IMG/VR virus record: IMGVR_UViG_2681813320_000003
Location: 1-25,704 of that record
Reading direction: 5' to 3' (one strand)
Length of the DNA stretch: 25,704 nt
Origin: a virus
Lineage: Duplodnaviria > Heunggongvirae > Uroviricota > Caudoviricetes
Part shown: piece after piece, positions 1 to 25,704 of the stretch
How positions within the stretch are numbered: the first letter of the stretch is position 1
How the letters are laid out: every line of letters begins with the position of its first letter
Notes under the pieces: model-generated
The model's input: only the letters and a program-made list of their open reading frames with translations
What the model was told of the DNA's origin: nothing
Databases searched by the model: none
Program-made: the position numbers and the translations under genes

Positions 1-23
1 TGATACATCAAATCCCGTCTGGC

Positions 24-5408: not shown

Positions 5409-5454
5409 AGGGAAAGGTTGCCATCAGGGGAAGAAAGGCGGCAGTGCTGCAACT

Positions 5455-5472: not shown

Positions 5473-5476
5473 AAGA

Positions 5477-6871: not shown

Positions 6872-7245
6872 GCTGCTACCTGTTGCGCCATCTGATTACG
6901 GGTGATCCAGAAGGCAATAACGGTCAGTAGATAAAAGACCAGGGTAATAGCCCACCCCGTCCAGGCGAGACTTACAACAATCAGCAATCGCATCACCCAA
7001 CTGGTAAATACGTTTTCTTTTCGGGTAATTGTCTTCAGCAAAGATGCCCTTAACTCCTGCCAGAGCGGGCCATTCTTAATTAACGCAGCCAGTGCTACCG
7101 GAATTACCGCCCATGTCAGCAAACAGGCTACCCAAACGCCGGACGCTGCCAGTACCGGAAAAATCCCCTGCGGATACACCATTGCTGCGATTAACAGCGC
7201 CATCCATAACATCAGAAACAGTCCGCTGATTAATTTCTTTTTCAT
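6868..7245 (-). CDS. lysA: LysA-like membrane protein (lysis timing)
   Basis: Start chosen at ATG 7243-7245 (MKKKLISGLFLMLW...), 1 nt after the K stop and preceded by a GGGAG Shine-Dalgarno; multi-pass hydrophobic protein. Confidence 0.6.
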   Translation of the reverse strand: MKKKLISGLFLMLWMALLIAAMVYPQGIFPVLAASGVWVACLLTWAVIPVALAALIKNGPLWQELRASLLKTITRKENVFTSWVMRLLIVVSLAWTGWAITLVFYLLTVIAFWITRNQMAQQVAA

Positions 7246-7246
7246 T

Positions 7247-7759: not shown

Positions 7760-7955
7760 AGTCCTCCCGCGAGATCTGCCCGTCGCGCAGAAGCTGGTAG
7801 GCTTTGTGTTTGTAGTACCAGTTGATAGCCAGCATCAGCACACCAATCATCAGGCCGCCCAGCGTTGAGGCATCCTTGATGGACAAATCGCCCAGCCAGG
7901 CCAGCACAACGGCGATGCAGTACGTGATAAAGGCGCTGATTCGCTCAAGCGTCAT
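7740..7955 (-). CDS. Y: holin
   Basis: 71-aa protein with two hydrophobic helices and a charged C-terminus, immediately upstream of the endolysin. Confidence 0.7.
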   Translation of the reverse strand: MTLERISAFITYCIAVVLAWLGDLSIKDASTLGGLMIGVLMLAINWYYKHKAYQLLRDGQISREDYESINR

Positions 7956-7958
7956 AAT

Positions 7959-8162
7959 TCAGTCCCATAGCTGGACGGTCTGCACGGTGGCGGTGGTCGG
8001 AATGTCCGGCAGCTCCACCTGCAGCCCGTGAGGTAAAAAGGGGCCATATTCGGCAAGCCCCGGATTTGCCTTCAGTACCTGCTCCGTGACACCCTGCGTG
8101 CGCCCGTAATGACGCCAGCAAAGCGCGTCCACCGTGTCATACTGATGCGCCCGCACTTTCAT
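7959..8162 (-). CDS. X: tail protein X
   Basis: 67-aa ORF, same length as P2 gpX, between L and the holin. Confidence 0.8.
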   Translation of the reverse strand: MKVRAHQYDTVDALCWRHYGRTQGVTEQVLKANPGLAEYGPFLPHGLQVELPDIPTTATVQTVQLWD

Positions 8163-8626
8163 CAGATAAGCTCCACTGTGCAGTGCGGCGCATCCTGCAC
8201 CCGGCTGATGGCCCAGCGGGCGTCACGCCACAAATCACCGCTGGATTCCGCCAGTTCCTCGCCTCGCTTCACACCGGATGCCGTGGCGTCATAGTCCTGG
8301 TATCGTTCGTTGAGCATGGCGCGTGCCCAGCAGTAAACCGCGTTGAAATAGTGCTGAATGCGCTCACTTTTGCCGTCCAGCTGTTCCGCCGGAACCTCAG
8401 CCAGCGAGGCATACCCCAGCATCTGCTGGCGTCTGCGAAACTCATACAGCTCTGCGTTGACCTCCGAAATTGCCGACAGCGCAACCTGCTTTAAACGCGG
8501 CTGCGTCACCGTGCCGTCAGTGCGCATGACACTGCGAAACTCCGACAGGTCCACATCAGGCCAGAACGGCGTATTTCTGATGATTTCCGCCTGTTCCGGT
8601 GCCTGTTCTGGCGCAACAAACTTCAT
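8162..8626 (-). CDS. L: head completion/stabilisation protein L
   Basis: Start chosen at ATG 8624-8626 (MKFVAPEQ...) with an AGGAG Shine-Dalgarno; the ORF track extends to a GTG at 8689. Synteny with P2 L. Confidence 0.7.
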   Translation of the reverse strand: MKFVAPEQAPEQAEIIRNTPFWPDVDLSEFRSVMRTDGTVTQPRLKQVALSAISEVNAELYEFRRRQQMLGYASLAEVPAEQLDGKSERIQHYFNAVYCWARAMLNERYQDYDATASGVKRGEELAESSGDLWRDARWAISRVQDAPHCTVELI

Positions 8627-8721
8627 GCTGCTTTCTCCTGAAATAGAGGGCGGTGGACGGGGTTTTGATGTGGCAGTGCCTTTCGCCACCCCGTGCCGCC
8701 CGTGCGCGGGGGCACGTTCTG

Positions 8722-9372
8722 TCAGCGGCTGTCATTGCGCAGTCTGCGCTCCAGCTGCTGTTTGTCTTTTTTCACGCCACAGCGGGGATCGAGCTGCAAC
8801 GCATGGTTGAGATGGTTAAGGGCGGAAGCCGGATTGCTTTCACTCAGGAGAGCGCCAATCGCTTTATGCAGACGCGCCCGTGACTGGTCCGGCATATCCA
8901 GACCGTCTGTCAGCTCCAGCGTCTGCAGCAACAGATCGGCATCAAAGCCGGTGGCGGCAAGCATTGCGCTCTGCGCCGCGTCTGCCATTTCCTCTGCCAG
9001 CACGGTCTGCACATTGCGGTTACCCAGTGGCATCACCCAGCCATGACGCAGGGCATGACATCCGATCTCCAGCGCCCCGGCATAATCTCCGGCATCAATG
9101 CGCCACAGCATCACGTACATCAGCACGTCATCCTGTTGAGCGCCTCCGGCAGCCAGGACACCCTCTGCCCAGGCGGCGTACTTCGGCAGCAGCTCCACCT
9201 TGATTTCCGCTTTTTTGACCGTGGACTGAACGCCCTTGAGACGGCGGCGGTCTTCCGCCAGTTGCAGCAGCATCAGGTCATAGCCCGATGCGTGGCGAAC
9301 ACTGCCGCCCTCGCGGGCGGCCTGTTCAGCCTGAACGCGCAGGCGATGCTGCCGTGCGGGACTCAGGCTCAT
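8722..9372 (-). CDS. M: terminase small (endonuclease) subunit M
   Basis: 216-aa ORF between N and L in P2 order. Confidence 0.8.
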   Translation of the reverse strand: MSLSPARQHRLRVQAEQAAREGGSVRHASGYDLMLLQLAEDRRRLKGVQSTVKKAEIKVELLPKYAAWAEGVLAAGGAQQDDVLMYVMLWRIDAGDYAGALEIGCHALRHGWVMPLGNRNVQTVLAEEMADAAQSAMLAATGFDADLLLQTLELTDGLDMPDQSRARLHKAIGALLSESNPASALNHLNHALQLDPRCGVKKDKQQLERRLRNDSR

Positions 9373-9375
9373 GGA

Positions 9376-10434
9376 TTACGCTCCGGTTTCGGCTGCGGCG
9401 GCGCTGAAATCACCAATCTGGATGTTTTCCACCAGTGCGGCGCAGCGGTAGTCCTCAACCACATAGGCTTCATTAACGGATTCAAAGTTTTCAATCCGGT
9501 CACGTTTCGGGTTGTCGATAACTGAACGGCGGCGGGTGTCTTCCTGCCAGTAGATGGACAGGTTATCCAGACGGGTGATCAGCAGTGCATTCGGCGGGAA
9601 GAACGGCGCACGCACGGCCTGCAGGCCACCCATGCGTTTCTGACTGATGATCATATCGGCAGCCAGTTTTTCACTGTTTTCCTGCTCTTTGTTGACCAGT
9701 GGGAAATACTTGTCAGACAACAGTTCACGACCGCAAATCACCACCAGATCGTCATCGTCCTGGTAGACCACGTCGATAAGCTCATTAACGGCATCCATCA
9801 CCACGGCGTCCAGGTTGGCATATTCGCCACCTTTACCGACTTTCACCGCGCCCGGTGTGGTTTCACCGCCCGTGGTGGTGCTGCCCATGACGTGATCCGG
9901 TGCATCCTCACGGATTTTCTGTAACCAGCCTTTGTTCACATCCTGCAGCAGCGGGTTTTCGCTACGGTTGGAGGTTTTCGCACGCTTCACGCCGTTAAAG
10001 CCGATCATGATGCGGTCCAGTGCCTGACGTTTCACGATGGCGTCACGGATACGCACCTGGAAATCCTGAAACTTCGCCCACAGGTCCAGCTTCGCGTAGG
10101 TCAGTACCGTGTCAAAGTTGGTCTGCTCGCATTTGTATTCCACATCGACCATCAGCGTAGGATCGACAGGTTCACGCTCTTTCGCGGTGGTGTCAGTGGT
10201 TCCGGCAATGGTGCTGCCAACACCCAACCCCAGCAGCTGACCGGACTGCTCAGTCACTGGCGTGACGTTAATCAGCGTCAGGAAAGCGGCGGACTGCTGG
10301 ATCTGGTCTTCCAGCGTCTGCTGCACAGACGGCTCCACGGTGAACTTGCTGGACAGTTCTTCAACTGCCACACCGTTCAGACGCGCCAGCTGCTGCAGGT
10401 AAGCGTTAAAAGCAAAGCGGGTATTCTTCTTCAT
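9376..10434 (-). CDS. N: major capsid protein N
   Basis: 352-aa ORF in the P2 gpN size class, downstream of scaffold O. Confidence 0.9.
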   Translation of the reverse strand: MKKNTRFAFNAYLQQLARLNGVAVEELSSKFTVEPSVQQTLEDQIQQSAAFLTLINVTPVTEQSGQLLGLGVGSTIAGTTDTTAKEREPVDPTLMVDVEYKCEQTNFDTVLTYAKLDLWAKFQDFQVRIRDAIVKRQALDRIMIGFNGVKRAKTSNRSENPLLQDVNKGWLQKIREDAPDHVMGSTTTGGETTPGAVKVGKGGEYANLDAVVMDAVNELIDVVYQDDDDLVVICGRELLSDKYFPLVNKEQENSEKLAADMIISQKRMGGLQAVRAPFFPPNALLITRLDNLSIYWQEDTRRRSVIDNPKRDRIENFESVNEAYVVEDYRCAALVENIQIGDFSAAAAETGA

Positions 10435-10450
10435 CGGGTTTTGTGCTCCA

Positions 10451-11284
10451 TCAGCAATTGGTCAGAGTGTCAACGGGGGCGTTACCGCCTGTTGCACGCT
10501 GGCGGTAGTCCTGGCGGCTGTCTTCATGACTCAGCTTGTCCACCAGTTCGTTAAAGGCGGTTTGCTGTGCCTGCAGGGCAGTCTCCAGCTCAGACAGGCG
10601 TTCTTCCTGCTCAGACAGGGATTTTTCGGTGCGTGCGCTCAGGTTCTGCTGCTCAGTGGCGACCAGCTCCACGGCCTTATGCACATCAGAGAATCGGGCG
10701 TCATCGGACTGCTCTTTTTTGGTAAACAGCGCCGTGACGCGGGCAAACAGGGACGGTTTGTCGTCCTGGATTTCTTCCAGTTCGATCACCGTTTCCTCTG
10801 CAGCGGTAAAGAGATTGGCAGGATTCTGCTTGCGGTTTGCCAGTGGGTTATGGGCTGCACTGGCGCTGAATGTCAGCATTTCAGTGCCCAGACTGGCAGG
10901 GTCATCAGTGGCAGCCAGGCCGACCAGGTAGGCTTTGCCCGTATCAGCGAACTTCGGGCTGACTTCCATAGAGGTGAATAATTTCTGGCCTTTTTTCACC
11001 AGTTCCACCAGGGACTCCGTTGGCTCAACGTCGGCATACAGCGCCATCTTGCCTGCCAGCGGACCTTCCGTGATTTCTTCAGCAAACAGCGCCGTCACCT
11101 TGCCGTAGCGGTTAAAGGTGCTGTCCGGCAGATAAGACTTGATGTGCTCAAGGTTAATCAGCGCGGTATACACCGCCGGGTTGTAGCTGGCTGCCATCTG
11201 TTCCAGCCATTCACGCTGGATTTCGCGTCCGTCGGTGGTGGCACCTTCCACCCCGATGCGAAAACGCTTTGCTTTCACTGTCAT
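10451..11284 (-). CDS. O: capsid scaffolding protein O
   Basis: 277-aa ORF with an acidic, coiled-coil-rich C-terminal half; divergent from P as in P2. Confidence 0.85.
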   Translation of the reverse strand: MTVKAKRFRIGVEGATTDGREIQREWLEQMAASYNPAVYTALINLEHIKSYLPDSTFNRYGKVTALFAEEITEGPLAGKMALYADVEPTESLVELVKKGQKLFTSMEVSPKFADTGKAYLVGLAATDDPASLGTEMLTFSASAAHNPLANRKQNPANLFTAAEETVIELEEIQDDKPSLFARVTALFTKKEQSDDARFSDVHKAVELVATEQQNLSARTEKSLSEQEERLSELETALQAQQTAFNELVDKLSHEDSRQDYRQRATGGNAPVDTLTNC

Positions 11285-11362
11285 GAGCCGTGCTCCGTTA
11301 GAAAAAACTTACTGGAGCCTTATGGTTGCGGTGATGGGGGCAGTGAAACAATGCGAGGTATT

Positions 11363-11380
11363 TGTACCGACAACCACACA
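11363..11380. promoter_or_regulatory. TGT-N12-ACA dyad in the divergent O/P intergenic region; candidate late-promoter activator site
   Basis: tgt-accgacaaccac-aca, with the dyad centre about 55 bp upstream of the P start codon. Confidence 0.4.
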
Positions 11381-11426
11381 AACCGCAGGCGGGGAAAGCC
11401 TTCATTCAAGGCTGTAGGTTTGTGCC

Positions 11427-14274: not shown

Positions 14275-15684
14275 TTACTCATCTACTCTGATTTTTTGTT
14301 TTTTATTATTTTGAGTTAAGACATTTATGGTAATAGATGTATACGGATGAAAGTCAGGCACTATACTTTTAACCTCTCCATTTTCAAGAAAATGATGTGC
14401 TATTGAAGGAAATAAATCAGGATCTACAGGATATTTAGCATTAGGATTATGATACATATTTAAACCTTCTGCCCATGTTTCTGTAATATCGCCTTCTTTC
14501 ACTTCAAAACTAAATGCTGCTGGATATAATGCCTCTGGGTCATGATCATGGCAGTAACCACTCCTAAATAATCTAAGGTCACTTCTTCCAAAACCAGCCA
14601 ATTTTCCCATCCGATTAAACTTCGATATAGTACCACTATTAGAACTAAGGACGGCCGAAATATTTTCAGACTCATCCAAGAAGAAAAAGCCTGAAGGAAT
14701 TTCCTTTTTCTCAAATTGATGCGATATAATTTTCTTAGTTGCTAAACTGTAACATCCATCTTCAGATTTAACATGCTCATAGCGAATACCATAAAGATAC
14801 TGCCAAAGTGCACTATGGGACCAAATCATAGAGTTTGGTTCATGAAAATCAGCAATTGCGAAAATTAAAGGATTCCCCTTAACATGTTCTAGATCCCAGT
14901 ATCGAGTTTTCTTTTTCAGTTTAGAATAGAGAGAACTTCCAAATTTAATCGGCATATAATTCTCTATTTTCTCTAGCAATTCTTCCTTACTTTTAGGTTC
15001 AGATAGCATTTCAGATGATTGATTAATATCATTCCCTGTTGGATTAACCGTTACAGCTTCAATGCAAATAGTATTACCATACTTACGTGCCACATAATCA
15101 GGAGCATTAAACTGCCTATCTAGCCAAAAGTGTTCCTCTCGTAAATATGCGAAAAGATATAACTCCCATAGCCGGGCATCAAAACCTGTTGTCTGAAACT
15201 GCTCTATAAAATTCCCGTCGACATCCTCAAAATGATTCATCATTTCCTTGATTATCCCTGTTGCAGGCGACCAGTTCGCGTATTTACCAAATAATGAAAA
15301 ATGATGATGAAGTTTATCTGGTGTAACTATAGGTGTGAATAAATCCATTGCTTTATAAGTTTCATCACCTTGTGGAAATACTTTTACGTTTAATTTAGTA
15401 TGCTTCCGCATTAATTTCTTTAGTTTTGCTCGTGCAGAATTCATTTCTGAAACACTAGTAAATAGGTCAATACATCTATATCTCCCACTTAAGTCTCTTG
15501 CTAAAACAATACCGCTATAATCTTCATCGATTTGATCCAATAATAGCGCCCCTAGCAGGAACTCTCTCGGACTACAGTACCACTCAAACTCATAGCCTAA
15601 AAGTTCAGTATTTGGCATTCTGGTCCAATCAACAAAAGCATTAAACCTCTCTTTACTCATTTTTTTTATATCAAGAAAAGACAT
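14275..15684 (-). CDS. hypothetical protein, AT-rich cargo (moron) gene; function unknown
   Basis: 469-aa uninterrupted ORF in markedly AT-rich DNA, with a GAGGT Shine-Dalgarno 8 nt upstream of the ATG. No Walker A or other motif recognisable by eye. Confidence 0.75.
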   Translation of the reverse strand: MSFLDIKKMSKERFNAFVDWTRMPNTELLGYEFEWYCSPREFLLGALLLDQIDEDYSGIVLARDLSGRYRCIDLFTSVSEMNSARAKLKKLMRKHTKLNVKVFPQGDETYKAMDLFTPIVTPDKLHHHFSLFGKYANWSPATGIIKEMMNHFEDVDGNFIEQFQTTGFDARLWELYLFAYLREEHFWLDRQFNAPDYVARKYGNTICIEAVTVNPTGNDINQSSEMLSEPKSKEELLEKIENYMPIKFGSSLYSKLKKKTRYWDLEHVKGNPLIFAIADFHEPNSMIWSHSALWQYLYGIRYEHVKSEDGCYSLATKKIISHQFEKKEIPSGFFFLDESENISAVLSSNSGTISKFNRMGKLAGFGRSDLRLFRSGYCHDHDPEALYPAAFSFEVKEGDITETWAEGLNMYHNPNAKYPVDPDLFPSIAHHFLENGEVKSIVPDFHPYTSITINVLTQNNKKQKIRVDE

Positions 15685-15781
15685 CTTTCTACCTCATCAC
15701 GAAAAAATATTTTTTCCTAAAAAGACTTAAGTTAGCTTAATCTATTGATAAAAAAAAGCTAAGTAACGACCAAATACGCGC

Positions 15782-15801
15782 GCTCGTATCCCCGCCACGC
15801 C
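15782..15801. other. cos-like cohesive-end site
   Basis: The reverse complement GGCGTGGCGGGGATACGAGC shares its first 13 nt (GGCGTGGCGGGGA) with the P2/186 cohesive-end sequences as I recall them. Confidence 0.45.
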
Positions 15802-15846
15802 TGCCCGCTTTATGTAGTGGTTTTCATGCACCTGCATGATCTACGC

Positions 15847-15870
15847 AAAAGCCCGCCAGTTCTGGCGGGC
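15847..15870 (-). terminator. rho-independent terminator downstream of the dinI-like gene
   Basis: GC-rich hairpin gcccgccag-tt-ctggcgggc followed by a TTTT run on the minus strand. Confidence 0.5.
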
Positions 15871-16005
15871 CTTAGCAAAAACGATCCTCAAACGATCATG
15901 CGATCTCATGCGGCATAGACATGCACTACAGAGCTAACGCCTCGCAAGGGCTCGTTGTTCAACCTTGCTGACGCCAGAAGCAAGTTCAGACGCCAGCAAC
16001 GTTTC

Positions 16006-16239
16006 TTAATGCAGCCAGCTGTCGTCTTCCCACACCTTCTGCATAATTTTCATCACTTGTTTTCTTTCTTCGTCCAGTTGCAGTCCGGTTAGTTCCACAC
16101 CGTTAGAGCTACCTTTGCGAATGCGAATTACCGTTTTGGGATACAGGGGGCGCAGATTGCGGTAAAGCTCGGATTCAAGGGCGTCCAGGGTAGACTGGCT
16201 AATCTTCTGCTCTTTATCGATCATTATTTCAATGCGCAT
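16006..16239 (-). CDS. dinI: DinI-family protein (Tum C-terminal-like)
   Basis: From the internal ATG 16237-16239 the product MRIEIMIDK...LDALESEL...KIMQKVWEDDSWLH aligns by eye along its length with E. coli DinI (MRIEVTIAK...IDALAGEL...ILQETWESADDW). GAGGTG Shine-Dalgarno upstream. Confidence 0.75.
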   Translation of the reverse strand: MRIEIMIDKEQKISQSTLDALESELYRNLRPLYPKTVIRIRKGSSNGVELTGLQLDEERKQVMKIMQKVWEDDSWLH

Positions 16240-16249
16240 AAAAGTCACC

Positions 16250-16438
16250 TCAGCTGATGACATCCATTGAGCGGTTGTATTCGTGGGTTCTGATTTTTGC
16301 CATGAGTTCATCAGTCAATTCAGAAACCCACTGCAGAGCCAGCCCCTTCTCTTCATCACTACACTCACTAGCCGCTACAAGCTTAAGAAAAAAATCAATG
16401 CGCTGGAGCTTCAAAGACTCCAAAAAATAGTCCTGCAT
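16250..16438 (-). CDS. small protein, possible Tum N-terminal-like antirepressor moiety
   Basis: 62-aa ORF from ATG 16436-16438 with a strong AGGAGG Shine-Dalgarno, immediately upstream of the dinI-like gene and downstream of a LexA box. The longer track ORF (to 16540) would overlap the LexA box. Confidence 0.5.
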   Translation of the reverse strand: MQDYFLESLKLQRIDFFLKLVAASECSDEEKGLALQWVSELTDELMAKIRTHEYNRSMDVIS

Positions 16439-16481
16439 CTTTCCTCCTATGACACCACACGCAATGCTGTATGCATAACCA

Positions 16482-16497
16482 CTGTTTATATTTACAG
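16482..16497. promoter_or_regulatory. LexA operator (SOS box) CTGT-N8-ACAG
   Basis: Exact match actgtttatatttacagta to the consensus TACTGT(AT)4ACAGTA, located about 45 bp upstream of the tum-like start on the minus strand. Confidence 0.7.
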
Positions 16498-16591
16498 TAT
16501 ATAATAATCTTACTGATGTAAAACGATTTTTTACGTTCATCAGCCTGATATGCCTGGTATTATTAAGAGCACGAATTGTTAACCCGCGTAA

Positions 16592-19006
16592 TTAATACAG
16601 GTTCCGCCACTGATCATCTTCCTGCAAACGCTGGTTCCGATAGAAGATACGCAGGCCTGCTCCTGACGGAATACTGCCTCCGCGAAGGAGTAAATCGACC
16701 TCTTTCTCGCTGCCATCAAATCCTCTGGACTTCAGCTCATACACGAGCTGCAGTCGCTGATGGTCTGTAATTCGCTGTTTGTAGTCTTTACGCCGTTTCG
16801 GTTTCACCAGGCGTAACCTTGCTGCCAGTTCCCTGCGCTCTTTTTTGCTCATACTGTGCAGGTAATCGTGCAACTCCTTGTCATCCATGCTGGTAATGTC
16901 CGTTCTGGGGTCCCCATCAGCTGATTTATCTTTCTCCTGTTGGTTCAAATTTTCAGCAAGGGGACAGTTATTGCCACGAGTCCAAGGGGCGCAAGCGCCC
17001 TGGTCGGCTGCCGCCTCCTGAACGTCAACGGCCTTACGAACCATTTTCCACTTCACTGCATGAGTGCAGATTTTGCCCTCTGCAATGGGTGACCAGATGC
17101 CATAAATACGAATGCCGTGATCGCCATAGGCGGTCGGCTCTTCGTTGATTTCATAAGCGGTTCTGATGAGGTGATATTTACGGGGAACCAGTACGCCGCC
17201 CTGCTTCATGATGTAGGTGGCAAAACAACCAGCATCAGCTGCAGCCAGAATGGCATCAAGGCGCGGGTTATCCAGTACCGGCGCACCTGCTTTTTTGTCA
17301 CCCTGTTGCCTTGCCACCTGACCAGCCAGCAATCGCAGTTCACGGTAAGCCTGACGCCCCGGAATGCCAAAGAAGCGGAATTGCTGAACACGATGCAGAG
17401 ACGCCCAGGCATTAACGTATTCAGCGTTATCACGCAGAGATTTACCCGTTTCCTTGCTGATCTCGCCAGCCAGACCACGCCCGTCAATGTTCTTACTGAT
17501 GTATTTCGCGATGTAGCTAGTCGGCGTTCCTTTGCGCGGGTTAATCAACTCAGACTTAAAGCGCGGCCCCGTGTTATTGCCCAGCTCCTCGCGGTCTTCA
17601 CGGATGGCAAACTTACGCAGTAATGCAGTGATGGCGCGGCGGTCTTTTTTGCGCATAAAACACAACAGGTGCCAGTGAACTGTGCCGTCATGATGCGGCT
17701 CAGCAACCCGCACGCCATACCAGCGCAACCCGGCTTTGTGCATAGCCTTACGAAATGCAGCAAACATGCCGACCAGATAATCACTGCTTTGTCTTACCGT
17801 CGCATTTGTCCAGTTCGGGTTGGGTCTGCCGTTATTTAGCGTGGAATGGAAACGTGACGGACAGGTGATGGTGTAGAAAACGGCGCAGTCACCGCGCATT
17901 TCCGCGATAAGTTCCAGACCTTTAACACAGGCCATCATCTCATTGCGGCGATGCGCAGGGTTGCTGCTGCTGGCGTTTACCACATCCTCCATGTCCAGCG
18001 TGTCGCCGTCTTCGTTCACCAGTTCATGAGAACGGAAAAACTCCAGCGACTTACGGCGCTGCTCACGTTTATGCATCACGGCTTCATAGCTGACATAAGG
18101 AGATGCTTTTTTGCTGACCAGGCAGACAGCGCGCAACTGCTCTTCCCGCCATTCGCAACGCATCTTCCATAATTTCCGGTACCACCAGTCAGCGCACAAC
18201 ATACGCGCCAGCGAACCCGGAATGAGTTCATAGGGCACGGGTTTACGGCGGTTTCTTTTCCGACGGAGTTGCTCAAACGCAGGCGGGATAACATCCAGAC
18301 GCAGGGTTTCCGCTACCACCTTTTCCCATGTCTTGCGGATTTCTTCTGGCTTAACGTCATCGGTGGCATACAAATCACCACAAGCTGCATCAAGGCACAT
18401 GCTCATATGCGCAGCGACAAGGGTAGACAGGCGCTTCACCTGATCCTGACTCATTTCAGGCAGGATAAGCAGGCCATCCAGCCCTTCATGGCTTGCCATA
18501 AAGCGAAAAGAAGCGGATAGCTGACTGTCGCGTACATGCTCCAGTCGTTCCAGACATGGCTTAATCGTCTCACGCAAATAGCGGGAATAAGCCTTTGGCC
18601 TGCCCAGGCTGCTGAAGTATTCAATACGTTGCATCAGCGGCTTGCTGATATGGGAAGGCTGGGCATTGACGTCCGCCAGAATGACCATATCTGGATTAAA
18701 ACGCTGCTGCTCATGCGCCAGCTTTGCCCGACTAATGAGCTTATCCTGCTCCATTTCGCGCTGGACAGGATCACGGGATTCATTAAAGAAATAACGCTCC
18801 CAGACCTGATCACTCAGTGCCTCGCGGCGCAGCTGTTCCTGCTCGTTATCGGCAGCGTACAGAGTGATCAGGTTTGAAAGCGCAGAAACCGGCGCAACTT
18901 CCGCCGGGTCCAGATAAGGGTTAATGGCCTTTTTCGGGCTGTTCCATGAGAACGATGCGGCAGCCTCGTTAAAGCCGCAGCAGTTGTTCATATCGGCATG
19001 GCTCAT
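16592..19006 (-). CDS. A: replication initiation protein A (rolling-circle endonuclease, P2 gpA family)
   Basis: 804-aa ORF with an HUH-type metal-binding motif ([13 protein letters not shown]) and a paired-tyrosine motif (YIAKYISKN); P2 gpA size class. Confidence 0.85.
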
Positions 19007-19860
19007 GCACGTACTCCGTACACGGCAGAACTATCCACGCCACGCGAATAATCAAATCCCACCCAGCAGCGCGGCCCGGAAACAGCAATGATTTCTGTTG
19101 CTGATTTACCCTCGCCAGCTGCCACACCGATGCTGCGTTTTGCCTTGATGTAGTGGTGAGTAAAATTGCGATACAGCGAACGGATCAGGGATGTGTCACT
19201 GTTAGAAACAATGACCGGATGTCCTTCTGATGACCGATGTTCAAGAACAGATGCCAGGTGATACTGGTCATCTTCAGTGAAACCATCAGTGTGATAGCCG
19301 GAAAACGTACCGTCATACGGCGGATCGCAATACACCACATCCCCCGCCTTCAACATCGCCAGCGTTTCATCAAAGCTGGCGCAGATAAACGTTGCTCGCT
19401 GGGCCTTTTCTGCAAATGCGCGAATTTCTTTTTCAGGGAAATACGGATTTTTATAATTACCGTAGGGAATGTTGAAATGCCCGCTCTTGTTATAGCGACA
19501 TAAACCACGGTAACCGTGACGATTGAGATACAGGAAATATACCGCTTTCATGAAATCAGTAATTTCAGTGGAGTAATTAAACTCCTGCCTTATGTTGTAA
19601 TAAGCCACCTCCCTGTTTGCGATCTCAAATAAAACTCTGGCGCGAGATATAAACGATTCACAATCAGCAGCAACCTTTTTATAGAGGTTGATTAAATCAG
19701 GATTAATATCCGCAACAAGATAGCTGGGGTACTCCGTCTCCATCATCACTGCACAGGAACCCGCGAAAGGTTCAACCAGTCGCGGGCCAGCAGGAAGATG
19801 CTTTTTCAGTTCGGACATAATGGCGGTTTTATTTCCCGCCCATTTCAGGATGGTGCTCAT
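19003..19860 (-). CDS. dam: DNA adenine methyltransferase (Dam-like N6-MTase)
   Basis: From ATG 19858-19860: [11 protein letters not shown] (AdoMet-binding region) and the catalytic DPPY motif ([10 protein letters not shown]). Confidence 0.85.
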
Positions 19861-20084
19861 ACAGCACCTCCGTTGTAATGTTTGCCTTTCAGCTCTGCGA
19901 TTTCCTGACAGGTAATGCAAAGCTGCACACCCGGAATGGCACGGCGGCGTGCTGGCGGAATTGGCGCTTCACACTCAATGCAAAGCACGCGGGACACGCC
20001 CGGCGTTTTGGCACGGGCAGCACGGATATGACGCTGGCGTTCTTCTTCAACGCGCTGCTGTACGAGATCCATTGCATCAGCCAT
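19857..20084 (-). CDS. TraR/DksA-family C4 zinc-finger protein
   Basis: 75 aa with CIEC-x17-CITC spacing typical of the DksA/TraR zinc finger; stop overlaps the dam start (ATGA). Confidence 0.7.
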   Translation of the reverse strand: MADAMDLVQQRVEEERQRHIRAARAKTPGVSRVLCIECEAPIPPARRRAIPGVQLCITCQEIAELKGKHYNGGAV

Positions 20085-20323
20085 TAGTGGATCTCCTGCG
20101 CTTCGTTCTGGATTGCTTCAGCTGCCACACGCAGCAGTTCAGCCGCTTCAACGTGGTTTAGCTGGCGGGATGTGATATGGCACGCAAGGCTATCAAGGCG
20201 AGCTGCCATTGCTTCAGCTCTTGCCCGACGTTCTTCCAGACGAGCCTCTGTCAGTAAAATATTAAGTCCTGCGTCATCCGGTCCGGTTTTAGTCGAGAGG
20301 GTTTCAATATTACGCATAATCAA
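20084..20323 (-). CDS. hypothetical early protein
   Basis: 79-aa ORF in the early rightward operon, stacked directly against the next gene. Confidence 0.45.
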   Translation of the reverse strand: MIMRNIETLSTKTGPDDAGLNILLTEARLEERRARAEAMAARLDSLACHITSRQLNHVEAAELLRVAAEAIQNEAQEIH

Positions 20324-20384
20324 TTCTCCTGAATTTAGATAAAGGAATGCCCGGCGGGTTTACGCCATGAATTTCATTAATTGG

Positions 20385-20726
20385 CTAATTCGGCATGGCT
20401 AGCCGTCTGGGAAATAAGCTCACCACTGCACGAAGATGATTCATTACTTTAATCAACTCCCGCTTTTCGTCAGTGGTCAGCTCATTAATGCTGATGCTAT
20501 GACGTTCAGCTGGAATTTTTGCTATAAAGAATATAGCAGCCAGTGCCCGTTTATTTTGTTCATTATTGATATCCCGTGGATCACGCATATCTTTAATAAA
20601 CCGCTCAAGCTCTGACTCAATATTAAGGCCAAAAACTTTCGCCCTTAATTCCGCAATGTGATTAAGTCCATTCAGGCGTTCGCCGGGGCTTAATGGAACA
20701 GTCGCCGCAGCGCCTTCAATAGCCAT
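20385..20726 (-). CDS. hypothetical early protein
   Basis: 113-aa ORF in the early operon between the cII-distal small ORF and A. Confidence 0.5.
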   Translation of the reverse strand: MAIEGAAATVPLSPGERLNGLNHIAELRAKVFGLNIESELERFIKDMRDPRDINNEQNKRALAAIFFIAKIPAERHSISINELTTDEKRELIKVMNHLRAVVSLFPRRLAMPN

Positions 20727-20890
20727 TTGTTCCCCCGTTTTTTCGTTGATAGTTCTGCCAGCAATTCATCTTGTGAACGGCACGGATGCCAGCGTTTACC
20801 ATCCTTACCCATTATCCAGCCGTGACCGTAGTGCATTGCCGGACTTTGTTTTACCAGCAACGATGCAAATGATGGTTCTTTCGTCAGCAT
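20690..20890 (-). CDS. hypothetical early protein (Fil/Dhr position of 186)
   Basis: Start chosen at ATG 20888-20890 (MLTKEPS...) with a GAGGTG Shine-Dalgarno; small overlap with the cII stop. Confidence 0.4.
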   Translation of the reverse strand: MLTKEPSFASLLVKQSPAMHYGHGWIMGKDGKRWHPCRSQDELLAELSTKKRGNKWLLKALRRLFH

Positions 20891-20897
20891 AAGCACC

Positions 20898-21407
20898 TCA
20901 CAGCAAACCGAATGAAGCACCGAGGCCAGTCACGGTATCAACTGCACTCGCCATCGCAGGGTTAGCCTGTAAACGGGCCTGCAATGAAACAGCAGCCAGC
21001 GCCATCAGTCGTGTTACAGAGTTAATGCTGCTGATAGCATCACGACGACCTGCACTGGTTTTTACATCGCCAGATACCGCACCTGCAGCAACACGCCCGA
21101 TCTCTGCGGTTGCACTCATGACGTAATGTGGCAGTTTCTCTTTTGCCACCTCATTAATCGGTACACATGGCAGGCAGTGAATCTGAGCCAGAAAACCATC
21201 TACCAGCGTTGAATCTTCAGTCAGATCGGTAAGCAACCAGATTTCTGGTGCAGTTAATAAATGAGGTTGAGCTGGGTTCAGCTTGTTCCGCAGAATCTGC
21301 ACATTCATGCCTGCACGTTCTGCCAGTTGCACCAGGTTGTGGCGCAGTGCAAAAGCCCTACAGGCTTCATCGAAATGCGGATGTTTGGAAATCTTGTAAT
21401 CAAACAT
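20898..21407 (-). CDS. cII: CII-like lysogeny-establishment activator (186 type)
   Basis: 169 aa, the same length as phage 186 CII, with an N-terminus ([20 protein letters not shown]...) that resembles 186 CII as I recall it; sits directly after the apl-like gene. Confidence 0.65.
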
Positions 21408-21440
21408 GGTGCCCCCCTTAGAAAGTTCCCATAATTGAAC

Positions 21441-21683
21441 TTACTTACCAACAATGACTCGGAAGTTGGAATGACCGAGGGATTCACGGACCTGATCGGT
21501 TTTGTACATCAGATAACGCAGGCTTACGCGGCCTTTGTTTTTTTCTTTCTTGACCATGTACTTAGCAAGTTGACCATGGTGAATTTTTTGGTAAACAGAG
21601 CCGCGGGAAATACCCTCCCACTCTGCGAACTCTGCAGGCGTAGCCATCTCTTTTGGTACACGAATTGAAATATCAGTACTCAT
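21441..21683 (-). CDS. apl: Apl/Cox-like excisionase and repressor (HTH)
   Basis: 80-aa first gene of the lytic operon, divergent from cI; helix-turn-helix-like segment PAEFAEWEGISRGSVYQKIHHGQL. Confidence 0.65.
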   Translation of the reverse strand: MSTDISIRVPKEMATPAEFAEWEGISRGSVYQKIHHGQLAKYMVKKEKNKGRVSLRYLMYKTDQVRESLGHSNFRVIVGK

Positions 21684-21804
21684 AGTGCAGTATCTCTTAC
21701 TTTGTGTGCGTGTTAGTTCGTTTTAGCCCGTCTCTTAAACTCTCACATCAAGAGACATGAAGACATTACGATCTTGATTCAAGATTGTCAAATGGAGATC
21801 ACCA
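21684..21804. promoter_or_regulatory. immunity switch region (pR/pL and operators) between apl and cI
   Basis: 121-bp intergenic region containing the perfect palindrome tcttga-t-tcaaga (21773-21785) and TCTC/GAGA repeats, with a GGAG Shine-Dalgarno for cI. Confidence 0.5.
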
Positions 21805-22437
21805 ATGTTAAACATCAGAATGGGTTCCGATACGGGAGGTAAGGCAGCTATTGAAAGGCTGCTTGAGGCTTATGGATTCACAACTAAGCAGGCATTAAGC
21901 GAGCACCTGAATGTCTCAAAAAGCACTATGGCAAACAGAGTGTTACGTGACAGCTTTCCTGCTGACTGGATAATTCAGTGCGCACTAGAAACCGGTGTTT
22001 CGTTGCTTTGGTTAGCTACAGGACAGGGAAGCATGAAAGGAGGAGCTGAGCCTGAGAAAAGTTCTCATAATGAGAACAAACAAGCAATTAAACCGTTATC
22101 CAAACTCATAACTCCAGCTATTCCTAAAGGAACCCTGGAGAATGGACAACTCAGTATTGATGAAGAGATTTTCCTAGACCACAGCATATTACCTGCAGAT
22201 TATGAAGAATCGATGTTCTTAGAAACCCCTACTGATTGTTATCTCATCGATAAATCAATTAAACAGGTCAGCAATGGATTCTGGCTTATCAATATTGATG
22301 GAATGATTATTGTTGCAAAAATCATGCGGATTCCCGGCAATAAGATTGTAGTAAATCAAGATGAAGCGTCTTTCGAGTGCTCTACTGATGATGTGGAAGT
22401 TATTGGGCGTGCAGTCAAAGTAATAAAGAGTATCTAA
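21805..22437 (+). CDS. cI: CI immunity repressor
   Basis: 210-aa ORF with an N-terminal helix-turn-helix-like region (TKQALSEHLNVSKSTMANRVLRD), located immediately upstream of int and co-oriented with it, as in phage 186. Confidence 0.8.
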   Translation: MLNIRMGSDTGGKAAIERLLEAYGFTTKQALSEHLNVSKSTMANRVLRDSFPADWIIQCALETGVSLLWLATGQGSMKGGAEPEKSSHNENKQAIKPLSKLITPAIPKGTLENGQLSIDEEIFLDHSILPADYEESMFLETPTDCYLIDKSIKQVSNGFWLINIDGMIIVAKIMRIPGNKIVVNQDEASFECSTDDVEVIGRAVKVIKSI

Positions 22438-22439
22438 AC

Positions 22440-23456
22440 ATGACTGTCAGAAAACAGCCAAACGGTAAATGGTTGTGCGAGTGCTATCCCAATGGACGCA
22501 ATGGCAAGCGCGTGCGTAAGCAATTTGCTACGAAAGGCGAAGCCATTGCTTTTGAAGGCTTCACAATGGAAGAGGTGAACAAAAAACCATGGCTGGGGGA
22601 AAAGGAAGATCGGCGACACCTATCAGAATTAATTGAGCAGTGGTATTCCCTGTATGGTCAAACACTCGCAGACCCCAAGCGCCTCATGGCGAAACTTAGA
22701 ATTATCTGTAATGGTCTAGGCGATCCCATCGCCTCAGAACTAACAGCCGGTGACTTTACGAAATACCGCGAAGCACGGTTAAAAGGTGAAGTACGAAATG
22801 AAGATGGCACGCTTATGTCGCCCGTTAAGCCCCGCACGGTAAACCTTGAACAGCGCAATCTATCATCGGTGTTCGGTACATTAAAAAAACTAGGACACTG
22901 GTCAGCACCAAACCCGCTGGCAGGACTTCCGACCTTCAAAATTACCGAAGGTGAGCTGGCTTTTCTTTCCGTGGACGAAATCAAGCGCCTGTTGGCTGCA
23001 TGTGCTGAATCTCAAAGCCCGAGCCTACTAATGATTGCAAAAATATGCTTAGCTACCGGCGCACGGTGGAGTGAAGCCGAAAACCTTCAGGGCCACCAAA
23101 TATCGAAATACCGAATTACTTATACAAAGACAAAGGGCAAGAAAAACAGAACAGTACCAATATCTCAAGATCTGTATCACGAACTCCCCAAAAACAGAGG
23201 GAAGTTATTCACGCCATGCAGAAAATCTTTTGAGCGTGCAGTAAAAAGAGCAGGTATTGACTTGCCAGAGGGCCAGTGCACGCATGTATTGCGCCATACA
23301 TTCGCTAGTCACTTTATGATGAATGGCGGAAATATTCTTGTATTGAGAGATATTTTAGGGCACTCAGATATAAAAATGACAATGGTCTATGCCCATTTCG
23401 CACCAGAACATCTTGAAGATGCTGTTACTAAAAACCCCTTATTTAACTTAAAGTGA
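22440..23456 (+). CDS. int: tyrosine integrase (P2/186 family)
   Basis: 338 aa with conserved catalytic-region motifs (ARWSEAENL; HVLRHTFASHF; LGHSDIKMTMVYAHF); starts 2 nt after the cI stop. Confidence 0.9.
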   Translation: MTVRKQPNGKWLCECYPNGRNGKRVRKQFATKGEAIAFEGFTMEEVNKKPWLGEKEDRRHLSELIEQWYSLYGQTLADPKRLMAKLRIICNGLGDPIASELTAGDFTKYREARLKGEVRNEDGTLMSPVKPRTVNLEQRNLSSVFGTLKKLGHWSAPNPLAGLPTFKITEGELAFLSVDEIKRLLAACAESQSPSLLMIAKICLATGARWSEAENLQGHQISKYRITYTKTKGKKNRTVPISQDLYHELPKNRGKLFTPCRKSFERAVKRAGIDLPEGQCTHVLRHTFASHFMMNGGNILVLRDILGHSDIKMTMVYAHFAPEHLEDAVTKNPLFNLK

Positions 23457-23465
23457 TAAATAAAA

Positions 23466-24671
23466 ATGCATATTCAACAAGAACTCGATGAAGAACTTAA
23501 TAATCTTTTTGACACTATTAGAAAAAAATCAAGTATTCGACCACCAATTGAGATTGAAAAAAACCTTACTTTGATAGATGACTTCGCTCTAAAATGCAGT
23601 AAATTCCGGGGTTGTTTAGTAGATTACATCCAGGAAAATGATAACAGGTTAAGTTTACGCTTGCGCAATAGACTTAGAGCTGTAGATATCATGCAGAAAG
23701 AAATCGTCTCGTGTTTAGAGTGTTTTTTATCAGGGGATATTAAGTCGGCATATGACTCATTTGAAAGTATGCTAGAGCCACGAACTATATCTCGTCATAT
23801 TGAAAATATATGCATACCTCTTTCTGACTTATGTAATGAAGATAAACCATTATTCCGCGTTAGAAAATCTGATACGCCACTTACATCAAGAAGAGATATG
23901 TTTCATATTCCGTTCAGTCAGCGTCACTTTGTTAGAGCACAGAGATTTTCAGTTGCTGGTCTACCCTGTTTATATTTAGGAACATCTCTTTATATATGCT
24001 GGAGAGAAATGGATAAGCCAGATTTTGATAAGCTATATATATCTGCCTACAAGATCGATAAAAATAATGACTCAAAGGTACTAAATATAGGACCTGATTT
24101 TTTATATAAACAGAGATCTATATTAGAGTCAAAAAGAAAGAACAAATATGATTTCAATACCAAACTCTCATATTTAGCACTTTGGCCTTTGATAATTGCA
24201 TGCAATTATTTAAAAAAATATGACAATGCTTCCTTTGTACAAGAATATATTATCCCCAATCTTTTGATGCAATGGATCAGTCGGAACAGCAATGAGAATG
24301 TTGTTGGTATAGCCTACCGCTCAACAAAATTACCTGCTAATGCCTTAGGTAGCAGAGGAATAAATGTGGTACTTCCTCCAAAAGTGCGTTACGAGGAGAT
24401 GGCCAATAATGAATTTTGTCCAAATCTAGCGAAAATTTTCAAATTCACATTGCCTGTATCTTGGCAGGTCCTAAAAACAGTTGAGTACGTGCCTGAATCA
24501 GTTGCACAATCCGATCGAGAGAATCTCAGCAGAAGGCTACGAAGAAGAAAAAATCGTGAGCTAACAGGAAGCATAGATGATGAAATTTTGAACATCTATA
24601 ATTTAACTGACTTTTATAAACTCGAAACTTGTATGGATGAAATTCAAGTATATGCCCATATTAAACCATGA
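23466..24671 (+). CDS. AT-rich cargo protein with RES-domain-like motifs (putative NAD+-targeting toxin or effector)
   Basis: 401-aa ORF starting 9 nt after the int stop. Motifs RFSVAGLPCLYLGTSLYICWRE and GIAYRST...GINVVLPP fit the RES-domain pattern. Marked drop in G+C relative to flanking phage genes. Confidence 0.55.
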   Translation: MHIQQELDEELNNLFDTIRKKSSIRPPIEIEKNLTLIDDFALKCSKFRGCLVDYIQENDNRLSLRLRNRLRAVDIMQKEIVSCLECFLSGDIKSAYDSFESMLEPRTISRHIENICIPLSDLCNEDKPLFRVRKSDTPLTSRRDMFHIPFSQRHFVRAQRFSVAGLPCLYLGTSLYICWREMDKPDFDKLYISAYKIDKNNDSKVLNIGPDFLYKQRSILESKRKNKYDFNTKLSYLALWPLIIACNYLKKYDNASFVQEYIIPNLLMQWISRNSNENVVGIAYRSTKLPANALGSRGINVVLPPKVRYEEMANNEFCPNLAKIFKFTLPVSWQVLKTVEYVPESVAQSDRENLSRRLRRRKNRELTGSIDDEILNIYNLTDFYKLETCMDEIQVYAHIKP

Positions 24672-24790
24672 TAGTAATGGCGACATTTTGGCGGCAGAGC
24701 ATTAAAAGCCTATAAAACGGACAAACACCAAATAACATTAACAATATGTTTTCAAACGAAATTTACTGTTTTTGTTATAGTAAAAATGGT

Positions 24791-24835
24791 ATGTAGGAAT
24801 TTCGGACGCGGGTTCAACTCCCGCCAGCTCCACCA
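24791..24835 (+). other. ssrA: 45-nt copy of the ssrA (tmRNA) 3' end; prophage att core
   Basis: atgtaggaatttcggacgcgggttcaactcccgccagctccacca matches the T-arm and acceptor end (including CCA) of enterobacterial tmRNA as I recall it. The upstream sequence is unrelated AT-rich DNA, so this is a fragment, not the gene. Confidence 0.8.
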
Positions 24836-24868
24836 CTTGCTCTTCCGGATACGTCCGGAGAAATCCTG

Positions 24869-24904
24869 AAAGCCCGCATAGCACAAGCTCTGCGGGCTTT
24901 TTTG
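24869..24904 (+). terminator. rho-independent terminator (ssrA-type) following the att core
   Basis: Hairpin aaagcccgca...tgcgggcttt followed by TTTTTTG. Confidence 0.55.
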
Positions 24905-24947
24905 TGTCTACCGTTGTCCGAGGATATCCAGCTAAATCCAGTGATTA

Positions 24948-24999
24948 TTGGTATACGTTTAGGTATACGGTAGGATGTATACCTAAACGCGTATACCAA
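24948..24999. repeat. ~22-bp inverted repeat upstream of the P4-family integrase start
   Basis: ttggtatacgtttaggtatac / gtatacctaaacgcgtataccaa arms separated by 7 bp, lying over the probable integrase promoter and RBS region. Confidence 0.5.
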
Positions 25000-25019
25000 T
25001 TCATGAAGGAGCGGCCAAA

Positions 25020-25619
25020 TTGGCAAGAACGACACGCCCCCTGACCAACACAGAAGTACTGCGCGCTAAAGCGTTAGAAAAGGATCTAACGTTGCATGAT
25101 GGCGATGGTCTTTTTCTACTCGTTAAAACGAACGGTAAGAAGTTATGGCGTTTCCGTTATCAACGTCCGGCAACAAAGCAACGGACAATGATGGGGCTAG
25201 GAGCCTTCCCAGCCCTTTCACTTGCTGACGCCCGACGCTTAAGAGCGGATTACCTTTCCTTGTTAGCCAACGGAATTGACCCGCAAATTCAAGCTGAAAT
25301 TGCAGAGGAACAGCAGCAAATCGCACAGGACAGTATTTTCTCGACGGTCGCCGCTAATTGGTTTCAGCTCAAAAGCAAAAGTGTTACCCCTGATTATGCA
25401 AAAGATATTTGGCGCTCATTGGAAAAAGATGTATTCCCCGCCGTTGGTGAGATGCCCGTTCAGCAGATCAAAGCTAGAACATTGGTCGAAGCACTTGAGC
25501 CAGTCAAAGCTCGTGGGGCATTAGAGACTGTACGTCGTCTGGTGCAACGCATTAACGAAATAATGATTTATGCGGTTAACACTGGCTTGATTGATGCAAA
25601 CCCAGCATCAGGTGGGTAA
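25020..25619 (+). pseudogene. P4-family (CP4-57 IntA-like) integrase, truncated by an IS1 insertion
   Basis: TTG start with a GGAG Shine-Dalgarno. The 199-aa N-terminal half (MARTTRPLTNTE...DGDGLFLLVKTNGKKLWRFRYQRP...) is typical of P4-type integrases, which are about 400 aa; the frame ends at a stop created inside the IS1 terminal repeat. Confidence 0.75.
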
Positions 25620-25704
25620 TGACTCCAACTTATTGATAGTGTTTTATGTTCAGATAATGCCCGATGACTTTGTCATGCAGCTCCACCGATTTTGAGAACG
25701 ACAG
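25615..25704 (-). mobile_element. IS1: IS1 end (terminal inverted repeat plus adjacent sequence), element continues beyond the window
   Basis: ggtaatgactccaacttattgatagtgttttatgttcagataatgcccgatgactttgtcatgcagctccaccgattttgagaacgacag is the reverse complement of the IS1 right end as I recall it. Confidence 0.85.

Follow-up and report, generated by a model that had tools for sequence, protein, structure and literature searches.

A P2-like prophage beside a P4-type satellite with an IS1-interrupted integrase gene: a mobile-element junction at ssrA in Escherichia coli

The DNA analyzed here (the window) is the entire 25,704-bp contig CYDS01000062.1 of the E. coli draft assembly GCA_001283565.1, with positions 15020 to 25704 constituting our locus L011. 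The left end of the window lies at a tail-fiber-assembly gene adjoining the invertible tail-fiber segment of related prophages, and at the right end the sequence enters IS1 and stops after 90 nt of it. The assembly was broken by repeats at both ends; in the case of IS1, this reflects the failure of short reads to assemble across a repeat. On its right side, the window holds a junction between a P2-like prophage and a P4-type satellite at ssrA, which represents a clean, ordinary case of known mobile-element traffic. From the phage integrase gene to the end of the contig, the following features were recognized.

22440-23456, plus strand: tyrosine integrase gene (338 aa) of the P2-like prophage, Fels-2/Elveevirus type, with the Pfam domains Int_N and Phage_integrase
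23466-24671, plus strand: 401-aa cargo ORF between the phage integrase gene and the att site, part of the prophage and not of the junction; an ORF of the same length lies in the same place in Cartapus
24672-24790, plus strand: noncoding left arm at the phage att site, forming the phage side of attR, with one difference from the Cartapus attP left arm
24791-24835, plus strand: displaced 45-nt ssrA 3' end, which forms the attR copy of the P2-like prophage's att core; an exact match with no second copy in the window
24816-24835, plus strand: putative nested core of the P4-type satellite (its attL), at the position equivalent to the 20-nt P4 core
24868-24905, plus strand: Rho-independent terminator, supplied by the satellite for the ssrA gene it abuts and vestigial here; 100% identical to the post-ssrA sequence in ATCC 8739
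24947-25000, no strand assigned: cluster of two direct and two inverted copies of a presumed arm-type repeat of ~12 nt, T[T/A]GGTATACG; the int promoter region overlaps it
25020-25614, plus strand: 5' part of the P4-type integrase gene, codons 1 to 198 plus one base; 100% identical to the ATCC 8739 int gene over 595 nt
25606-25614, plus strand: CATCAGGTG, left copy of the 9-bp IS1 target-site duplication, as recognized from sibling contigs L014 to L017
25615-25704, minus strand: terminal 90 nt of IS1 (IRR end; transposase on the minus strand), identical to the complete 768-bp IS1 in L008

The 45 nt at 24791-24835 are the last 45 nt of the annotated ssrA gene in ATCC 8739, K-12, and PSS-08-2, which are identical to one another here, and none of 100 shuffles gave a match. 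The likeness to ssrA breaks off at 24790/24791, and the bases further left are not ssrA. ARAGORN found no tmRNA gene in the whole window, and therefore, the intact ssrA gene is not in the window; a full ssrA directly adjacent on this side, the arrangement that the initial annotation had named as speaking against it, is absent. The Rfam tmRNA model aligned to the window with its 3' part alone, at 34.5 bits compared to a gathering score of 47, and the window holds no functional tmRNA gene, that is, one of full length with both the tRNA-like domain and the tag reading frame. We also considered an IsrM gene at 24798-24903, which was rejected given that the weak Rfam match (33 bits compared to a gathering score of 376) reflects the shared terminator only.

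Escherichia phage Cartapus has the same 45 nt in its attP site. In the complete genome PSS-08-2, they flank the prophage on both sides, and they also close the intact ssrA gene. The order of features in Cartapus is the same integrase gene, the same 401-aa ORF, a left arm of the same 119-nt type that differs by 1 base, the same 45 nt, and then another right arm (AATAAATCAAGGGG...). On the left side of the PSS-08-2 prophage, this Cartapus right arm directly follows the intact ssrA gene; on its right side, the 45-nt fragment is present, and the DNA beyond it is the same as that beyond the fragment in the window. Sequence related to 24672-24790 is also present at the attR sites of the PSS-08-2 and TOK-001 prophages. 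The comparison of attP, attL, attR, and attB fits exactly what would be predicted for a classical recombination of attP with attB into attL and attR, and we conclude that 24791-24835 served a P2-like prophage of Fels-2/Elveevirus type as its att core. PGAP calls the equivalent fragment in PSS-08-2 a 177-nt tmRNA.

We considered that the 45-nt fragment could instead belong to the P4-type element itself, either as a duplicated core or as an ssrA pseudogene, with unrelated DNA to its left. P4-type islands at ssrA do have ssrA 3' sequence at their ends (PMC10107115, Table 1), but the other end of this satellite shares only ~13 to 19 degenerate nt with ssrA, the first base of identity in the window is also the first base of the Cartapus attP core, and the preceding 119 nt match the Cartapus left arm. 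Furthermore, a different prophage beside the same integrase scar leaves a 27-nt fragment, and a satellite origin of the 45 nt is thereby rendered very improbable. The assignment of the fragment to the prophage also places it beside a cognate tyrosine integrase, the 338-aa Int, which is 99.7% identical in amino acid sequence to the integrases of Salmonella phage RE-2010 and Cartapus and 92.3% identical to that of Fels-2.

The prophage resembles the ssrA-integrating P2-like phages of the Peduoviridae (Fels-2, SopE-phi, RE-2010, and Escherichia phage Cartapus) in its integrase, which is 92 to 99.7% identical to theirs, and in the 45-nt core that it shares with Cartapus attP. Cartapus covers 83% of the prophage DNA in the window at 96.9% identity, whereas ~17% is uncovered. 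The cargo differs among relatives of the prophage, with the 401-aa ORF in the window, GapS1 in TOK-001, and another gene in PSS-08-2. The 401-aa ORF belongs to PHROG 7835, which is annotated without function, and searches of Pfam, PADLOC, and NCBIfam gave no match for it. The prophage also has 186-type CI/CII/Fil regulatory genes. A related phage attR beside this satellite integrase was found in ~20 of the 5,426 complete E. coli genomes.

The integration of Fels-2 and SopE-phi leaves the 3' end of ssrA unchanged (PMC10107115, Table 1). The phage right arm has its own terminator hairpin, and therefore, the phage restores ssrA as a full transcription unit. In PSS-08-2, which has the same array, intact ssrA lies at the far left prophage end, and by analogy we would expect the intact gene at the prophage left end in the genome of the window as well, where smpB and the full 363-nt ssrA should be followed by AATAAATCAAGGGGTTACG.

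The DNA to the right of the phage core has a different history. Window positions 24791-25614 recur with 100% identity in ATCC 8739 and in many further E. coli genomes, and 24836-25614 stand there directly after the intact ssrA gene. The terminator is formed by a stem at 24868-24901 and a subsequent T run; the hairpin has a predicted energy of -22.6 kcal/mol (z = -5.8), and none of 200 shuffles was as stable. It is followed by a near-perfect palindrome at 24947-25000, with arms at 24947-24968 and 24977-25000, for which the predicted energy is -31.4 kcal/mol (z = -7.2).

The same tandem pair of repeats is present once more in the ATCC 8739 element, 55 nt inside the core at its right end. In the GenBank record of P4, 112 nt separate the core from two tandem 12-mers toward int, an inverted copy lies at the start of int, and two further tandem 12-mers lie 53 nt away on the other side. 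The first repeat in the window, at 24948, likewise begins 112 nt past the CCA end at 24835. We read the palindrome as a set of Int arm-type binding sites because the repeats of P4 attP show the same layout and the same 112-nt spacing; these would be the presumed binding sites for the arm domain of the satellite Int, overlapping its promoter region. A P4-like attP architecture, that is, tandem arm repeats on both sides of a core at the 3' end of a target RNA, is present in this element, with the other side seen in ATCC 8739.

The core annotated in P4 is the last 20 nt of its target tRNA, and by analogy, 24816-24835 would be the core of the satellite. An exact-repeat search gave no second ssrA fragment at the right end of the satellite. 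Alignment of the right ends of K-12 CP4-57 and the ATCC 8739 satellite did find a short degenerate copy of the form ACTCCGCCAG(CCCA)CCA that they share, the remnant reading ACTCCGCCAGCCA in ATCC 8739 and ACTCCGCCAGCCCACCA in K-12. The right end of the satellite has only this short remnant, and its core is thus likely nested inside the 45-nt core of the phage. Shortened ssrA forms like these right-end remnants are tabulated for elements with P4-type integrases (PMC10107115, Table 1). The shortened copy at the satellite right end in ATCC 8739 is of the same kind as that of CP4-57.

The ORF at 25020-25619 contains the domains Arm-DNA-bind_3 (E = 3e-23) and Phage_int_M (E = 2e-27), and a Pfam search of this ORF found no catalytic domain PF00589. 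NCBIfam PRK09692 matches the window half of the integrase over positions 1 to 196 of 413. The uninterrupted allele encodes all three domains, Arm-DNA-bind_3, Phage_int_M, and the catalytic Phage_integrase; the first 595 nt of this gene, whose product is the 398-aa integrase WP_000124719.1, are 100% identical to the DNA of the window. The identity ends exactly at the IS1 terminal repeat GGTAATGACTCC, and the IS1 sequence supplies a Gly codon and a stop codon at 25615-25619, giving a product that ends ...NPASG-G-stop.

The initial annotation had read the locus from its letters as a 45-nt ssrA 3' copy serving as att core, an ssrA-type terminator, a palindrome, and the N-terminal half of a P4-type integrase ending exactly at an IS1 terminal repeat. 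All of these items stand at the stated coordinates after comparison with other genomes, and the palindrome is refined to the cluster of arm-type Int-binding repeats of the satellite.

At the amino acid level, the integrase is 60% identical to IntA of CP4-57 in K-12 and 36% identical to P4 Int. Sibling copies of the neighboring element are 98% identical in nucleotide sequence to P4 over 7.2 kb (sid-delta-psu and cI-epsilon-alpha), with identical gene lengths. P4-like satellites are common in E. coli (PMC9122126, PMC8628076), and their core genes are defined as int, psu, delta, sid, alpA, epsilon/ash, and alpha (PMC13586616). The six of these genes other than the integrase gene lie outside the window; they are present beyond the same split int in L014 and beyond the intact int in ATCC 8739. 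In L014, the satellite genes that follow the C-terminal half include those for Psu, Delta, AlpA, Derepression, and a 777-aa primase. The element of ATCC 8739 has the order int, a variable hotspot gene of 567 aa, psu, delta, a 244-aa gene, HTH, Icd-like, and primase-helicase, and it ends before ypjA. The proposal that a P4-family element resides at ssrA can therefore be sharpened with the sibling copies, which identify the neighbor, so far as its sequence can tell, as a true P4-like satellite.

We tested CP4-57 as the identity of the neighbor and rejected it, given that IntA is 60% identical and the downstream genes in the siblings are P4 genes and not CP4-57 genes. CP4-57 of K-12 is similar to the satellite in its site directly after ssrA, its P4-type integrase, its post-ssrA terminator, and its degenerate right-end ssrA remnant, but it is a 22-kb island with unrelated cargo and without psu, delta, sid, or alpha. 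P4 itself (NC_001609) shares the domain architecture of the integrase, the layout of the arm repeats, and the 112 nt from the core to the first int-side repeat. It differs in that its Int is only 36% identical and its core is the 3' end of a tRNA gene, whereas the satellite targets ssrA; the repeat motif is GGTATAC in the satellite and GGGGGCA in P4. The hotspot cargo of the satellite is the gene for the 567-aa protein, whereas P4 has gop/beta/cII, and the int gene is split by IS1 here.

The IS1 sequence at the end of the window could be followed in other assemblies. The complete IS1 in L008 is 768 bp long and 100% identical to annotated IS1B-like elements, with the InsAB gene on the minus strand. 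A homologue search with the C-terminal half gave mostly fragment representatives of other alleles. An exact look-up of the predicted C-terminal product (198 aa, starting at Met201) found it in E. coli, with accessions that belong to one series with those of the N-terminal half. Sibling contigs L014 to L017 begin with 104 to 156 nt of the other IS1 end, followed by CATCAGGTG and then by the rest of int. The left copy of the 9-bp duplication is thus in the window, and the right copy is seen only in these sibling assemblies. One assembly, GCA_003604915.1, has both halves: its contig L009 carries ssrA, the N-terminal half, and IS1, and its contig L014 carries the IS1 end, CATCAGGTG, the C-terminal half, and the satellite. 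Both halves are paired by protein accession in at least three further assemblies. The initial annotation had called for the C-terminal half beyond IS1; it exists in the sibling assemblies with the 9-bp duplication, and the window itself ends in IS1. The reading that the integrase gene was cut by IS1 consequently gains a genuine transposition event behind it; in the sibling genomes, IS1 entered the gene by simple transposition and duplicated 9 bp.

The window breaks off within IS1, and misjoins at repeats may occur in short-read assembly, which raises the question of whether the junction between the integrase gene and IS1 is an assembly chimera. The 199-aa fusion product was found in 29 collection blocks, however, from NCBI, ENA, and Logan assemblies, and the reciprocal junction with the matching 9-bp duplication is present in independent assemblies; a chimera is almost certainly not the explanation. 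The catalytic domain PF00589 is found only in the C-terminal half, and therefore, the split gene cannot make an active recombinase. The satellite would be immobile with its own integrase.

IS1 insertions and the deletions that occur adjacent to them are both textbook events, and the features of this IS1, namely its 768 bp, imperfect terminal inverted repeats, and 9-bp duplication, do not differ from those known. IS1-associated deletion variants begin at the same IS1 end as the simple insertion. We weighed whether the IS1 of the window could be the border of a deletion, such that the C-terminal half and the rest of the satellite are gone and attL with half of int is left as a scar. L008, one of the two samples carrying it, has the identical left junction and a complete IS1, beyond which the sequence continues with the 5' end of ypjA, located 14.8 kb downstream in ATCC 8739. 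The flanks of its IS1, CATCAGGTG and CTGAGCGGC, do not match and show no target duplication. L008 reflects either a deletion that arose secondarily in association with IS1 or the collapse of two IS1 copies during assembly. In addition, the complete genomes 600055 and HCP4S3_I4 have a related ssrA-linked integrase gene cut by IS1 and followed by deletions. A deletion in the genome of the window would be expected to read GGCAGCATCACC and then CTGAGCGGC. L008 alone, however, shows a deletion at this exact junction, whereas at least eight contigs read for P0136 show the C-terminal half at the IS1 end with a perfect 9-bp duplication, one of them from the same assembly as a contig with the N-terminal half and one from the sequencing project of the window. 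P0137, a 201-aa partial C-terminal integrase fragment of the same cluster, is on 13 more contigs, counted by protein alone. We dropped the 14.8-kb deletion as the general case in this lineage given the simple insertion with a 9-bp duplication in most siblings, and we consider a deletion unlikely for the window as well.

With a simple insertion, the C-terminal half and the rest of the satellite likely lie beyond IS1 in the genome of the window. The C-terminal side would then be expected to read AAGTTGGCAGCATCACC CATCAGGTG TTGGCATGGCC, with IS1 followed by CATCAGGTGTTGGCATGG (the IRL end and then CATCAGGTGTTGGCATGGCC). An IS21 additionally interrupts the satellite in L015, a contig of the sequencing project that also yielded the window. 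In the strains in which IS1 is followed by a deletion (L008 and the two complete genomes), the element appears to have been lost and not merely immobilized.

The int::IS1 scar coexists with three states of ssrA. It stands directly after the intact ssrA gene, with no phage, in L008 to L010; it stands beside the present phage in the window; and it follows a 27-nt ssrA fragment left by a different, lambdoid prophage in L012 and L013. Independent acquisitions of phages could account for these three states, as could the loss of phages through precise excision. The presence of the same split integrase gene beside all three suggests a rapid turnover of phages at ssrA within one lineage.

Taken together, the most probable course of events, in which we have high confidence, is that the right end of the window is the attR of a Fels-2/Elveevirus-type prophage beside an older satellite cut by IS1. 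A P4-type satellite would already have been in place at the 3' end of ssrA, with its own terminator, arm repeats, and int gene, when the phage Int recombined the 45-bp attP core with the ssrA 3' end and so generated the attR at the right end of the window. The working ssrA, at the far (left) end of the phage, would have received from it a 45-nt 3' end that was new but identical, together with the phage terminator, and the old 45 nt, with all of the satellite DNA downstream, would have been pushed to the right end of the phage. IS1 would have transposed into int at codon 198/199, duplicating CATCAGGTG and parting the DNA-binding half (arm- and core-binding domains) from the catalytic half; the satellite could then no longer excise by its own integrase. 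Excision of the phage would be predicted to restore ssrA followed by CTTGCTCTTCC. We place the satellite first and the phage later because the displaced ssrA fragment is followed by satellite DNA, and the nested fragments of 45, 27, and ~20 nt speak for the same order.

The tandem island array at ssrA proposed in the initial annotation is thus upheld by the phage core with its match in attP, by the P4-family neighbor, and by the analogous array in PSS-08-2 with ssrA at the far left. It is established that multiple elements integrate at ssrA, where they use nested sub-sites and form tandem arrays (Williams 2003, J Bacteriol 185:1059, as cited in PMC10107115). The present locus is similar to the tmRNA-gene arrays so described in that several integrases use nested sub-sites of ssrA, the newest element lies beside the intact gene, and 3' fragments mark the boundaries; the boundary fragments here are 45 nt (P2-type), 27 nt (the lambdoid prophage in L012 and L013), and ~20 nt (P4-type). 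Compared to the arrays as they are cited there, no difference in principle is apparent, and the window would be one more instance, in which the older element has an integrase gene split by IS1. Every component is at least 97% identical to deposited sequences, and nothing in the array appears to be new in kind.

The importance of the junction is slight beyond bookkeeping, and its consequences are mainly practical. Short ssrA fragments beside prophages are att scars and should not be annotated as genes. Satellites split by an insertion sequence will be missed or misclassified by surveys in which an integrase must be present on the contig itself. A helper-type phage next to a satellite that is unable to excise is also a natural case for the study of domesticated satellites.

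The repeated disruption of this integrase by IS1 leaves mildly open whether the site is a target hotspot or whether selection acts to lock the element beside ssrA. The exact int::IS1 junction is in neither of the two complete genomes, among 5,426, that cover the junction query (DA33135 being judged by its listed coordinates). In 600055, the closest case among the 5,426, an integrase allele with 92% nucleotide identity is cut by a different IS1 variant 1 to 3 bp away, followed by the deletion, and in HCP4S3_I4, the 600055-type allele is cut by IS1 near codon 302, again followed by a deletion. This gives three independent IS1 events in this integrase family, two of which lie no more than 3 bp apart and involve distinct alleles and distinct IS1 variants. 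Elements with a P4-type integrase shorten the ssrA 3' end when they excise (PMC10107115, Table 1), CP4-57 leaves a shortened, defective tmRNA 3' end on excision (PMC10107115), and we hypothesized that IS1 knockouts of ssrA-linked P4-type integrase genes could be recurrent and selected, and not accidental. If this were the case, the incoming phage would also insulate the working tmRNA from excision of the satellite. We regard selection as a doubtful explanation that has little probability. The simpler alternative is that the site may be an IS1 target hotspot; it has two short matches to the IS1 end.

The ssrA-linked P4-type integrase genes of two further E. coli strains, 600055 and HCP4S3_I4, were found to carry independent IS1 hits, each of which can be compared with the IS1 cut in the window.

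IS1 hits in ssrA-linked P4-type integrase genes
L020 (NZ_CM129037.1) 3466-4825, IS1-cut integrase of E. coli 600055; compare window 25606-25620
L022 2267-3926, IS1-cut integrase of HCP4S3_I4; compare window 25606-25620

The 600055 integrase allele is 92% identical to that of the window; another IS1 variant, in the same orientation, interrupts it 1-3 bp away from the position cut in the window, and the IS1 is followed by a deletion. The HCP4S3_I4 integrase is cut near codon 302. The IS1 target CCCAGCATCAGGTGTTGGCATGG includes CAGCATCA and GTTGGCA, both of which are also present in the IS1 IRL end. These observations point to a possible IS1 hotspot.

Contigs with the same split integrase differ in what adjoins it.

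Loci related to the int::IS1 scar
L008 (GCA_003651345.1 QYUY01000008.1) 10596-11400, int::IS1 left junction as in the window, complete IS1, then the ypjA 5' end
L012 (Logan SRR29259467) 4816-4842, 27-nt ssrA 3' fragment beside the scar
L013 (Logan SRR19543001) 3389-3415, 27-nt ssrA 3' fragment beside the scar
L015 (GCA_001285465.1 CYCI01000086.1, same-project sibling strain) 5350-10715, P4-like satellite interrupted by IS21

The L008 contig lacks 14.8 kb, in which fall one half of int, the complete satellite and almost the entire ypjA gene; no target duplication flanks its IS1. Two readings fit this junction, a deletion associated with IS1 or a collapse in the assembly. In L012 and L013, a different prophage, which encodes a 392-aa integrase with Arm-DNA-bind_2, adjoins the same scar, and the 27-nt fragment that this prophage leaves marks a third nested ssrA sub-site used within the same lineage. 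In L015, IS21 (istA/istB) breaks the satellite after sid; beyond it lies a gene set characteristic of islands of the CP4-57 type, with CbtA/CbeA, RadC and antirestriction genes. In the same contig, the hotspot gene for the 567-aa protein is broken up into ORFs of 439 aa and 127 aa.

RefSeq/PGAP labels the attR of the PSS-08-2 prophage (L002 5983-6159) as a 177-nt "ssrA transfer-messenger RNA." Because ssrA accounts for only the last 45 nt, this call is an artefact that arises in annotation when a covariance model is aligned locally, and an Rfam match of the same kind occurs at window 24756-24835. The weak Rfam match at 24798-24903 to the Salmonella sRNA IsrM (33 bits, far under the gathering score) results from near-identical terminator hairpins; IsrM may itself descend from an island's att or terminator region of a similar ssrA type.

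Two ORFs of the window's P2-like prophage were considered with respect to defence.

Known and candidate defence ORFs
14275-15684, minus strand, 469-aa ORF, full-length match to PADLOC model PD-T7-1 (E 1e-196)
23466-24671, plus strand, 401-aa ORF in the int-att interval of the phage, PHROG 7835

The first is a known anti-phage defence gene and lies where such a gene is expected, in the gpA-gpQ hotspot. The second gave zero matches in Pfam, PADLOC and NCBIfam; PHROG 7835 is a family without known function, and the annotation of the related phage Cartapus calls it a putative RES/NAD+-binding protein. The int-att slot, a minor defence hotspot of P2 (PMC13586616), varies in content, holding GapS1 in TOK-001, another gene in PSS-08-2 and the 401-aa ORF in the window, which is a candidate uncharacterised defence gene.

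The rest of this prophage, roughly 9-10 kb (tail genes, D, ogr and attL), sits on other contigs. The contig's left end (window 1-674) falls at a tail-fibre-assembly gene adjoining the invertible tail-fibre segment known from the PSS-08-2 prophage, where it consists of a recombinase and an inverted tail-fibre-assembly gene pair.
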